Sequence record: PQ471515.1
From: Escherichia phage Turkey3
Direction: 5' to 3' (one strand)
Length of the DNA stretch: 64,000 nucleotides
The notes beneath the pieces were generated by a model. The model was not told the DNA's origin, ran no database searches, and saw nothing but the letters and a program-made list of their open reading frames with translations. The position numbers were made by a program, and so were the translations under genes. Shown piece by piece: positions 53,293-54,480 of the stretch; the first letter of the stretch is position 1, and every line of letters starts with the position of its first letter.

Positions 53293-54411
53293 CTATATTA
53301 CTATTTTTTCTTCAGTATATATTAATGCTTTATCTGAGGTAGTGTATCCAGGTAAAGGATACAATCTACCTGCAACATAACATATGTCATTTTCTATATA
53401 ATATGATGAATATGTACTGTCAAAGAATATAGGCTCTATTGAAGTTGGTGCATTGATCATCTTAGTAAATGCTGGAACCGGACCAGGTGCAAAACTTGCA
53501 TTTGTACTGGTAAACCCATAATTATCGGAAACTGCGGACACATAATAATCGGTTCCATTCTGGATTATTATTCTTGCTGCAACCGAACTACTATTATTAA
53601 CGATTTTAGGAAATGCAAATGTGGCTGCATTATATGTGAATGGTAACGAACAAGAAACTAAAGTTGCAGTTGCACCAGACACTGATGTTCCATATTTATT
53701 GTTGACGTTTCCTCTGGCAAATACACCACTAGCGGTATTAAGCACTACAACAGCAACTGTTGCTGAATAACCCAAAACCCCTGTTGCAATTTGGGTAAAC
53801 CCAGTGGAACTAGGTATTTGACTAGCGTTTGGGTTTCCAGAACCATAAAGAACACCAGAATTAGTTAATGCCCATACGTTTGCATACATTAATTTGAATG
53901 ACTTGACATCACTGACTATCGTATTTTTAACAAAAGATGTACTACTACTTGGTGTGCTCATTCCAAATATATATTGCGTATTCGTACCAATGAACCACAA
54001 TTCTCCTAAGTTTGTCAGTACCCCTATACAGTTACGTAACGCATTAACTTGAACATCAATTATTGTACCAGTTACTGCATTAAAAATCGAACTACAATTA
54101 ACAAATATATTACTTGTTGGATAACCAAATGCAGTAGTTTCACCGCTGCACATATACTGACCGTCTTTGAGTTTTAAAAATGTCCACGTAGGTGAATAGT
54201 AAAAGTCATCAACATTTTCATATATCAAAGTCCACTTATCAGCCGATGTAGTAACATCACCAAACTTACCATTTGTATTTGGTCCCGCAGCATATAATTT
54301 ACCACTTGTTGTTAAGAATAAAATACCACTAGTTCCGTCCGTGACCATTTTACGTATTTTCGTAACTTCTCTTACATTTCCGTACTTAACCATTCTTGCA
54401 AAAGGTAACAT
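53293..54411 (-). CDS. MLPF-leader paralog 4
   Basis: 372 aa; MLPFARMVKYGN; conserved cassette upstream. Confidence 0.8.
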   Translation of the reverse strand: MLPFARMVKYGNVREVTKIRKMVTDGTSGILFLTTSGKLYAAGPNTNGKFGDVTTSADKWTLIYENVDDFYYSPTWTFLKLKDGQYMCSGETTAFGYPTSNIFVNCSSIFNAVTGTIIDVQVNALRNCIGVLTNLGELWFIGTNTQYIFGMSTPSSSTSFVKNTIVSDVKSFKLMYANVWALTNSGVLYGSGNPNASQIPSSTGFTQIATGVLGYSATVAVVVLNTASGVFARGNVNNKYGTSVSGATATLVSCSLPFTYNAATFAFPKIVNNSSSVAARIIIQNGTDYYVSAVSDNYGFTSTNASFAPGPVPAFTKMINAPTSIEPIFFDSTYSSYYIENDICYVAGRLYPLPGYTTSDKALIYTEEKIVI

Positions 54412-54480
54412 AATTCCCTCCTTTATTCTTTATACTATATTTAATCAAAAAGAAAAGCCAGTACTCTGTACTGGCACTAT
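54412..54480 (-). promoter_or_regulatory. conserved terminator / AT-box / RBS cassette
   Basis: Minus-strand reading: GCCAGTAC-aga-GTACTGGC hairpin, T-run, TTGATTAAATATAGTATAAAGAATAAAGGAGG, then ATG. Confidence 0.65.

Follow-up and report, generated by a model that had tools for sequence, protein, structure and literature searches.

The question that this locus raises is how a string of 36 nucleotides can stay nearly unchanged at the start of a dozen neighbouring genes whose remaining parts diverge widely. The DNA is a stretch of 64,000 nucleotides from Escherichia phage Turkey3 (PQ471515.1), here called the window, in which 12 complete genes (49098-63351), numbered paralogs 1 to 12, and a 13th truncated by the window end form a tandem array on the minus strand. 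All 12 complete genes begin with MLPFxRMxxYGN, and there is no further such start within the window. An earlier note on this DNA drew attention to the leader of paralog 4, and correctly placed it at 54376-54411, the first 36 nucleotides of a 372-aa gene (53293-54411). It sorted the leaders into two versions, and both the versions and their membership hold: ARMVKYGN in paralogs 2, 4, 5, 6 and 7, zero to two nucleotides off the string given for it, and VRMFDYGN in paralogs 3, 8, 10, 11 and 12, zero to four nucleotides off, with paralogs 1 (VLLFDYGN) and 9 (GRMLSYGN) as outliers. The 36-nucleotide pattern is not expected by chance (0.00 matches, 100 shuffles). Gene conversion between the paralogs, a functional RNA leader and a recombination module for the swapping of bodies had been proposed as causes. 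We think it probable that the first and the third act together, as gene conversion and cassette-mediated shuffling similar to that of the promoter-early stem-loops (PeSLs) of T4-type phages, and that they act on a leader peptide which serves as a virion tag.

By its sequence the window belongs to a jumbo coliphage of the Asteriusvirus type (the 121Q/PBECO4/phAPEC6 group). A megablast search with 49000-64000 against 50,697 phage records matched 36 jumbo phages (genus Asteriusvirus) that infect E. coli or Salmonella, including 121Q, PBECO4, phAPEC6 and fEgEco12, at 89-99% identity, and any one record covered at most 39% of the region, in several pieces. The bodies behind the leaders are of several kinds. 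RCC1-like propellers are found in paralogs 1-4, 7, 8, 11 and 12, with PF00415 or PF13540 above the cutoff in paralogs 1, 7, 8, 11 and 12, and Kelch propellers in paralogs 9 and 10, while paralog 6 is a 245-aa glycine-rich protein and paralog 5 has 449 aa and no Pfam family. The description as seven-bladed RCC1-type β-propellers thus fits the array, but not paralogs 5, 6, 9 and 10. The bodies are mutually unrelated or saturated in divergence.

The premise that selection on a peptide alone cannot maintain wobble positions is sound, and the comparison of leader and body divergence that the note proposed is decisive. For eight arrays we took the sites where two paralogs share an amino acid and counted how often they also share the codon, in the leader and in the body, with an expectation derived from body codon usage. 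The leader fraction is 0.73 in the window, where 0.46 is expected, 0.82 in both EC.P1 and fEgEco12, 0.88 in both UE-S1 and 121Q, and 0.71 in EJP2. The bodies follow codon usage, at 0.45 in the window (expected 0.44-0.46), 0.44-0.47 over the six Asteriusvirus arrays and 0.44-0.51 over all eight (expected 0.44-0.50); their synonymous sites are saturated, and the synonymous divergence of the leaders is clearly unlike theirs. Recent duplication as the source of the leader identity was rejected on account of this saturation. The wobble conservation is nevertheless incomplete, which qualifies the original claim. Leu2 is always TTA, Lys9 is always AAG (five of five, where AAG is 32% in the bodies) and Gly is never GGT, the codon of 61% of body glycines, but the leaders vary between CCT and CCA for Pro, TAC and TAT for Tyr, GGA and GGG for Gly, AAT and AAC for Asn, GCA and GCG for Ala, and GTT and GTA for Val. 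Two distant arrays retain the peptide as MIPFxRIxxYGN with leader fractions of 0.60 (Erwinia phage Hallingskeid) and 0.55 (Salmonella phage Munch; expected 0.50). The nucleotide sameness of the leader is a lineage-specific extra on top of peptide selection, and since the peptide is under selection everywhere and the sameness is confined to a lineage, codon bias and recent duplication are ruled out as its source. One might still argue that purifying selection on the peptide, an AT-rich codon bias and common descent are sufficient without any gene conversion, as the peptide is strongly conserved and some of the codons used in the leader (TTA, TTT, AGA, AAT) are also the most frequent choice for the amino acid in question. 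We find this very improbable, as conserved-amino-acid sites in the bodies stay at the expectation, rare codons are fixed in the leader, the leaders group by genome rather than by body orthology, and patches have been replaced within otherwise identical DNA.

These last two observations come from a comparison of the window with the arrays of UE-S1, 121Q, EC.P1, fEgEco12, EJP2 and JNE01, with the bodies clustered at 60% amino-acid identity or above. The leader version follows the genome and not the orthology of the body. Each of the body groups 0-8 occurs with two to four leader versions across the phages: the 393-aa body of paralog 12 has VRLFDY in the window, VRMFDY in EC.P1, fEgEco12 and JNE01, GRMVKY in UE-S1 and VRMLEY in EJP2, and a 369-aa body ('PGPKNIIK') is preceded by ARMVKY, VRMFDY, VRLFDY or VRMLEY. 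Paralogs of the same genome have leaders that are 86% identical on bodies that are 28% identical or unalignable, and orthologs are 89% identical in the leader and likewise in the body; the observed within-genome leader identity was reached in one of 5000 label permutations. The replacement can be seen directly when paralog 12 is laid against UE-S1_7263. The two are identical at 90 of 90 nucleotides upstream and 113 of 114 downstream, but in codons 5-10 they differ at 7 of 18 nucleotides (Fisher p = 4e-9), GTT AGA TTG TTT GAT TAT in the window against GGG AGA ATG GTT AAG TAC, the leader that the neighbouring paralogs in UE-S1 itself have. In 48 ortholog pairs whose bodies diverge by at most 5%, the leader core is 14.8% divergent, against 2.1% for the body.

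What lies upstream of the leader is more uneven than had been believed. The identity was said to continue through the ribosome-binding site (RBS), an AT-rich box and a terminator hairpin, and in paralogs 4-7 this whole region is indeed near-identical, but paralogs 2, 3, 8 and 10 share the Shine-Dalgarno sequence only and begin 9-15 nt past the upstream stop codon. The cassette of CAGTAC hairpin terminator, TAAATA box and RBS is thus present before only 7-8 of the 12 genes, as type A before paralogs 4-7 and type B before paralogs 9, 11 and 12, with paralog 1 having the promoter box alone. The second box, described as TATAAT, is so in paralogs 5-7 and reads TATAAA in paralog 4. In seven cassettes the TAAATA box and the Shine-Dalgarno sequence stand at fixed spacing, and the pattern TAAATAnnnTATAAT has 14 matches where 3.45 are expected. 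The hairpins fold at -12 to -16 kcal/mol (z = -4.1 to -5.6), all with the stem (C)CAGTAC...GTACTG(G), which within the window is specific to the array; most other terminators have unrelated stems, with that at 567-589 loosely similar. A second terminator family, at 21441-21466, 29920-29943 and 34295-34316 on the plus strand, consists of near-identical copies of (A)GGGTTGAC-TTCG-GTCA(G/A)CCC(T) with a UUCG tetraloop, and is unrelated to the CAGTAC stems.

The idea that leader and cassette are inherited together as two subtypes did not survive the comparison. The pairing of A with RMVKY and B with RMFDY is loose in the window and broken in the related phages. In 121Q nearly all leaders are RMVKY with A cassettes and EJP2 has B cassettes only, with private RMLEY and RIMTY leaders, but in EC.P1 and fEgEco12 the A cassettes pair with both leader versions, and paralog 12 has a type B cassette where JNE01_13548 has type A, with leader and body 97-99% identical. 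(Ungapped comparisons of the upstream 70 nt are inflated by indels of 1-3 nt and are not used as evidence here.) Leader, cassette and body assort independently, and the two linked subtypes are therefore not real units. What is repeated is cassette plus leader: 36 Asteriusvirus records have 5-16 sites per genome that match a 105-nt query of the two, and the GenBank record of UE-S1 has two 'repeat_region' features of 104-105 bp at cassette plus leader, without comment.

The bodies are exchanged at the same place. Gene order and content differ among all seven arrays, which are mosaics of shared and private bodies, and of the 22 internal ends of the high-identity blocks that the window shares with other phages, 21 fall between -90 and +45 relative to a start codon, in 11% of the array's length (binomial p = 1e-19), with many ends at +36 to +49, where leader meets body. 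For the bodies of paralogs 4, 9 and 10 the 50,697 phage records contain no DNA relative, whereas their cassette and leader match 28-32 records. A search of 5.8 billion proteins with paralog 4 returned six and shows only a 98% and a 74% relative, the former encoded on a 355,685-bp ENA contig. Some array members are broken into a leader-bearing short stub and a leaderless downstream open reading frame (ORF), in 121Q (locus L002, 21795-22974, 23084-24263 and 25464-26616), EC.P1 (L003, 9665-10844) and JNE01 (L006, 12293-13472); such frameshifted pseudogenes fit a birth-and-death turnover. Two of the three causes first proposed are thereby supported: gene conversion by the codon fractions, the switching of leaders, the replaced patches and the clustering of leaders by genome, and a module for body swapping by the mosaic arrays, the block ends and the orphan bodies with shared cassette and leader. 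A repeated, sharply bounded conserved site 5' of every variable body could also bring to mind a programmed diversity system, with shufflon- or vsa-like site-specific recombination or targeted hypermutation and the leader as recognition site. We hold this to be the least probable explanation of all, since all the genes point the same way, each with a start and an RBS of its own, which leaves no single expression site, and since patches and breakpoints are spread over about 130 nt without one core site. In eight related loci a search, which was not exhaustive, found neither a recombinase nor a reverse transcriptase among the annotated genes nearby.

The third proposed cause, a functional RNA leader, fared worse. 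As an element in which the 5' untranslated region (UTR) and leader work as translational enhancer, riboregulator or processing site it would agree with the wobble conservation beyond codon usage in Asteriusvirus and with the conserved block of paralogs 4-7, which covers non-coding as well as coding sequence. But folding of six regions from -25 to +50 gave z between -0.94 and +0.81 relative to shuffles, with a different structure in each paralog, and an Rfam scan (E ≤ 1) gave one chance-level match only; paralogs 2, 3, 8 and 10 carry the leader without any of the UTR, and leader versions that are 6-8 nt apart replace each other on the same body. None of the degenerate leader positions is constant in Munch and the IMG/VR relatives (Pro CCA/CCT/CCG; Gly GGG/GGT/GGA/GGC; Arg AGA/AGG/CGT/CGA), and the lineage-specific nature of the sameness argues against a universal constraint at the RNA level. 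A structured cis-regulatory RNA leader was rejected, as no stable secondary structure is common to the copies, and an RNA element of any of these kinds seems to us highly implausible.

The cassette itself most resembles a late promoter behind a terminator. Its TATAAT box could be taken for a sigma-70 site, but we found no -35 partner for it (the hexamer 17 nt upstream, CTTTTC, agrees with TTGACA at one position of six) and no cassette site is among the listed sigma-70-like sites, outside of which there are 22 weaker ones. The sigma-70 reading was rejected, there being no -35 element at 16-18 nt and the invariant element being TAAATA, and as TATAAT has no partner we read the cassette as a TAAATA late-type promoter. 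In phages CBB and GAP32 an ATAAATA with an AT-rich tail upstream of structural genes has been read as a T4-like late promoter, together with a gp55-like sigma factor (PMC5259590), and ATAAATA is the late-gene motif of Rak2-like phages according to the CBB paper (PMC5259590). Promoter and terminator activity and late timing are what we infer for the cassette. A B-type box, TAAATACATTATAAT, is also found at 15719-15733, upstream of a lone 385-aa gene on the minus strand (14539-15696) amid plus-strand genes, which has neither the tag, a CAGTAC hairpin nor a Pfam family. As this gene is unrelated to the array, the promoter type would be general and the hairpin and leader specific to the array. In Munch (locus L008, 4317-4385 and 9994-10069) the CCAGTAC...GTACTGG stem and a TTAAATAnnnTATAAT box are preserved nearly to the letter, and so they are in IMG/VR contig 2029527005_000005 (loci L024, L026 and L027); in these distant Salmonella-type relatives the bodies and leader codons have diverged.

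That the peptide has a long history of its own was missed in the earlier note. The tag is present in every intact array gene of the eight phages, with rare variants at G11 (A or S) and N12 (Q or R); the leader is the most conserved segment of the family alignment, in which M1, P3, F4, G11 and N12 are invariant. A degenerate DNA pattern found the tag in ten IMG/VR contigs, 121Q and GAP32 included, of which nine are large (109-378 kb); there it also sits on ConA/LamG-like bodies of 200-260 aa (PF13385, at most 47.9 bits), on Kelch bodies and on phrog_6011 ('virion structural protein'). In the contigs 2974588491_000001 and 3300042256_000013 (loci L014-L020) the tagged genes, mostly with LamG-like or Kelch bodies of 200-285 aa and the tag MLPFPRLxxYGN, are scattered over several loci and do not form a single array. 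The AlphaFold model of paralog 4 (predicted template modelling score, pTM, 0.80) has an RCC1-like propeller from residue 19, after a Pro-rich linker, and residues 1-15 are unstructured and outside the propeller, with a predicted local distance difference test score (pLDDT) below 50. Foldseek matched the model to UVR8, RPGR and RCC1 at E about 1e-14 with 10-19% identity. For the Kelch paralog 10, modelled from a two-sequence alignment, the mean pLDDT is 42, and the tag's position outside the fold is read from the paralog 4 model alone. The tag is anciently conserved and independent of the fold, and this is why the leader exists.

Eight homologous proteins were detected in purified virions of phAPEC6 by mass spectrometry (PMC7247149), GAP32 gp1, which was likewise found in virions, is a structural protein (PMC5259590), and the virions of phAPEC6 and CBB have unexplained hair-like fibres on capsid and tail. 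From a conserved tag on a free tail, the presence in virions and the analogy to known docking and targeting peptides, we think that the tag most likely docks or addresses interchangeable binding modules to the virion. The annotation of these genes as 'DNA condensation' proteins is a name transferred from eukaryotic RCC1, with its suggestion of DNA-condensing or Ran guanine-nucleotide exchange factor (Ran-GEF) activity. A different role for the peptide, which would leave the DNA-level explanation as it is, is that of a propeptide like the capsid-targeting sequence (CTS) of T4, by which internal head proteins are loaded via the scaffold, perhaps cleaved by a gp21-like prohead protease, and then injected to organise DNA or to counter defence. 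The internal proteins of T4 are likewise diverse and fast-evolving and share just a short conserved N-terminal CTS (PMC3012670), the phAPEC6 authors proposed the RCC1-like proteins as an inner body, a T4-type prohead protease is among the phage's genes, the array proteins are found with the virion, and a quick turnover of bodies would suit an arms race. There is no conserved cleavage motif, however; [LIV]xE comes straight after residue 12 in 2 of 12 paralogs (VRE in paralog 4, VVE in paralog 12), and five paralogs have no Glu at positions 13-17. Moreover, RCC1, Kelch and ConA/LamG lectin-like bodies are typical surface ligand-binding folds, rigid propellers of 40 kDa far exceed the 76-residue mature IPI* (T4 head review, PMC3012670), and these phages have unexplained hairs on capsid and tail. 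We therefore consider the propeptide an unlikely alternative, but one with more in its favour than the others.

Our preferred explanation, gene conversion and shuffling on a virion tag, then has two layers. In the protein layer, M[LI]PFx[RK][MIL]xxY[G/a][N] is an old, fold-independent N-terminal tag of Rak2-like jumbo phages, on a free tail before a short Pro-rich linker, joined to unrelated ligand-binding bodies (RCC1 and Kelch propellers, ConA/LamG-like jelly rolls, a Gly-rich protein) that it most likely docks or addresses to the virion in the manner of the docking peptides of branched receptor-binding proteins (RBPs) or of the T4 CTS. In the DNA layer, each gene of an Asteriusvirus array would usually be its own late transcription unit behind a cassette of about 70 nt, and cassette and leader together make a repeat of about 100 bp, 5-16 per genome, that would be a substrate for homologous recombination. 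Short-patch gene conversion between the repeats would homogenise the leader, and to it we ascribe the wobble conservation as well as the two 'subtypes', in our view no more than a pair of alleles at the variable residues 5, 8 and 9 that are spreading. Recombination between repeats would also delete, duplicate and replace whole bodies between phages, and a recombination machinery is presumed to be behind it. A further step is to see in the repeat a self-homogenising plug-and-play adaptor of Rak2-like jumbo phages, by which a captured body would at once be late-transcribed and addressed to the virion via a universal, transferable peptide; this we offer as a tentative possibility, and lean somewhat against it.

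Several points weigh against this explanation. The CAGTAC stem and the TAAATAnnnTATAAT box are conserved also in the distant Munch, so that a sequence-specific function of the cassette is possible. Codon bias close to the start could differ from an expectation derived from bodies, for which the Munch and Hallingskeid arrays are only a partial control, and comparisons of paralog pairs are not independent. Block ends must extend into a shared leader under any mechanism, and a single junction enters the count from several genomes. In the tag logo, some positions could not vary because the search pattern fixed them. On the protein side, the phAPEC6 mass-spectrometry counts are low (1-5 unique peptides) and could reflect contamination or a low copy number, and docking to the virion is argued from that presence and from analogy.

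The features of the array are collected in Table 1.

Table 1. Genes, leader and predicted cassette elements of the tagged array in the window
Feature	Position	Strand	Remarks
Focal leader, paralog 4, codons 1-12	54376..54411	-	MLPFARMVKYGN; nucleotides ATGTTACCTTTTGCAAGAATGGTTAAGTACGGAAAT
Shine-Dalgarno of paralog 4	54416..54424	-	AAAGGAGGG
Putative promoter box of paralog 4	54429..54443	-	TAAATAtagTATAAA; TAAATA core resembles T4-type late promoter
Predicted intrinsic terminator of paralog 5	54446..54475	-	GCCAGTAC-AGA-GTACTGGC then TTTTCTTTTT; hairpin 54457-54475 and T-run; -12.4 kcal/mol, z = -4.1
Type A cassette, paralog 5	55832..55902	-	hairpin 55878-55893; TAAATA 55857-55862; TATAAT 55848-55853; Shine-Dalgarno 55835-55843
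Type A cassette, paralog 6	56641..56710	-	hairpin 56686-56704
Type A cassette, paralog 7	57845..57922	-	hairpin 57890-57908
Type B-like cassette, paralog 9	59933..60005	-	hairpin 59975-59999; TAAATAcatTATAAT 59951-59965
Type B cassette, paralog 11	62095..62169	-	hairpin 62138-62165; TAAATAcatTATAAT 62116-62130
Type B cassette, paralog 12	63352..63424	-	hairpin 63395-63418; TAAATActaTATAAT 63372-63386
Predicted bidirectional CAGTAC-stem terminator	49067..49093	.	closes array past paralog 1
Predicted bidirectional CAGTAC-stem terminator	50958..50976	.	past paralog 2 and inverted 216-aa gene
Paralog 1	49098..50222	-	MLPFVLLFDYGN (VLLFDYGN); RCC1-like; promoter box alone (TAAATA 50248-50253)
Paralog 2	50983..52119	-	MLPFARMVKYGN; RCC1-like; no cassette, 15 nt past paralog 3 stop
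Paralog 3	52135..53280	-	MLPFVRMFDYGN; RCC1-like; no cassette, gap 12 nt
Paralog 4	53293..54411	-	372 aa; RCC1-like seven-bladed propeller body; type A cassette
Paralog 5	54482..55831	-	MLPFARMIKYGN; 449 aa, no Pfam family; start 55831, not TTG 55867
Paralog 6	55903..56640	-	MLPFARMVKFGN; 245 aa, glycine-rich non-propeller; phrog_4474 (unknown function)
Paralog 7	56711..57844	-	MLPFARMVKYGN; RCC1-like
Paralog 8	57923..59032	-	MLPFVRMFDYGN; RCC1-like; no cassette, gap 9 nt
Paralog 9	59042..59932	-	MLPFGRMLSYGN (GRMLSYGN); Kelch-type propeller
Paralog 10	60006..60953	-	MLPFVRMFDYGN; Kelch-type propeller; no cassette, gap 10 nt
Paralog 11	60964..62094	-	MLPFVRMFDYGN; RCC1-like; start 62094
Paralog 12	62170..63351	-	MLPFVRLFDYGN; RCC1-like; UE-S1 ortholog has converted leader
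13th array gene, 3' part	63425..64000	-	truncated by window end

The starts of paralogs 5 and 11 are placed at 55831 and 62094 because of the leader alignment and the RBS; mechanical ORF calling extends both too far into their cassettes, to a TTG at 55867 (region 55832-55867) and an ATG at 62109 (62095-62109). Between paralogs 1 and 2 there is an inverted 216-aa gene without Pfam family (50300-50950, plus strand), which shares the bidirectional CAGTAC terminator past paralog 2 and is kept at the equivalent position in EC.P1 and fEgEco12. The array is adjoined by seven tandem paralogs of small (104-123 aa) multi-pass membrane proteins (46622-49061, plus strand), and a block of such genes adjoins the array also in 121Q, EC.P1, fEgEco12, EJP2, JNE01, Hallingskeid and Munch.

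Two known systems come close, one on each level. In T4-type phages the PeSLs are terminator-promoter units that drive modular shuffling in hyperplastic regions (PMC2839356, PMC4122927), and like them (Arbiol et al. 2010; Comeau et al. 2014) the cassette is a repeated intergenic stem-loop terminator with promoter, Shine-Dalgarno sequence and start codon, in a hyperplastic region, where it flanks the most variable genes and has the indel and replacement breakpoints between related phages. Unlike a PeSL it has a TAAATA late-like motif and not a sigma-70-like promoter, its repeat does not stop at the start codon but takes in 36 nt of coding sequence, which specify a conserved peptide tag, and it appears to serve late, virion-associated genes where the PeSLs serve early ORFans. 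With PeSLs, recombination between adjacent cassettes also gives rise to mini-circles that are encapsidated. On the protein level, the tag is like the T4 CTS (PMC3012670) in being a short N-terminal peptide that is the sole common part of diverse, fast-evolving proteins carried in the virion, but it has no sequence similarity to the CTS, lacks a conserved (L/I)xE protease site, and its bodies are large propellers and lectin-like domains. The docking peptides of branched RBPs, down to 7 residues long (PMC6872550; Latka et al. 2019; K1-5/SP6, KP32/KP34, PhiK64-1/RaK2), similarly put a conserved N-terminus of 7-30 residues on unrelated, horizontally exchanged distal modules, and RaK2 and PhiK64-1 are themselves Rak2-like jumbo phages, the wider group that includes this phage. 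The array bodies, in contrast, are not β-helix depolymerases or tail spikes; with Pfam and PHROGs the tagged bodies match RCC1, Kelch or LamG-like families or have no match, and pectate-lyase and tailspike families were not found. Nor has an anchor with a T4gp10-like branching domain, the partner that takes up the peptide in such systems, been linked to these bodies, though no search aimed at a partner was made, and 12-15 array genes per genome have one common tag.

Multigene families of bacterial surface antigens, such as vlp/vsp of Mycoplasma, offer a parallel outside the phages, with a conserved 5' UTR and signal-peptide exon before divergent bodies, tandem paralogs, and a promoter region and leader that recombination keeps nearly identical. 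Their leaders are lipoprotein signal peptides and their expression is phase-variable, neither of which is true of the phage array. In the literature that could be searched, neither the tag nor its concerted evolution came up, and the fEgEco12 and Sharanji genome papers mention neither tag nor cassette. The array is ordinary in principle and specific in detail, PeSL-like at the DNA level and docking- or CTS-like at the protein level, but by sequence, body type and cleavage motif a member of neither peptide family.

For the biology of these phages, the finding re-reads 12-16 genes per genome, annotated for 'chromosome/DNA condensation' in about 40 records of jumbo phages, as a family of binding modules that carry the tag, are associated with the virion and vary in repertoire from one close relative to the next. 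With the tagged proteins there is a definite candidate for the unexplained hair-like decoration of virions of the phAPEC6 and CBB type, and the 12-residue peptide could be tried as an incorporation tag in jumbo-phage engineering. The idea behind the PeSLs, that a regulatory cassette can be a recombination adaptor, would hold not for early ORFans alone but for late structural genes too, and would reach into the coding sequence. The array is also a natural example of concerted evolution confined to about 100 bp, for which the peptide of Munch is the control that separates conservation of the peptide from that of the nucleotides. If the repeat is an adaptor in the full sense, these phages would have rapidly exchangeable binding modules on the hairs of capsid and tail, or alternatively injected effectors, the label 'DNA condensation protein' in dozens of genomes would be wrong, and the tag would be a ready signal for display or cargo loading in phages of 350 kb.

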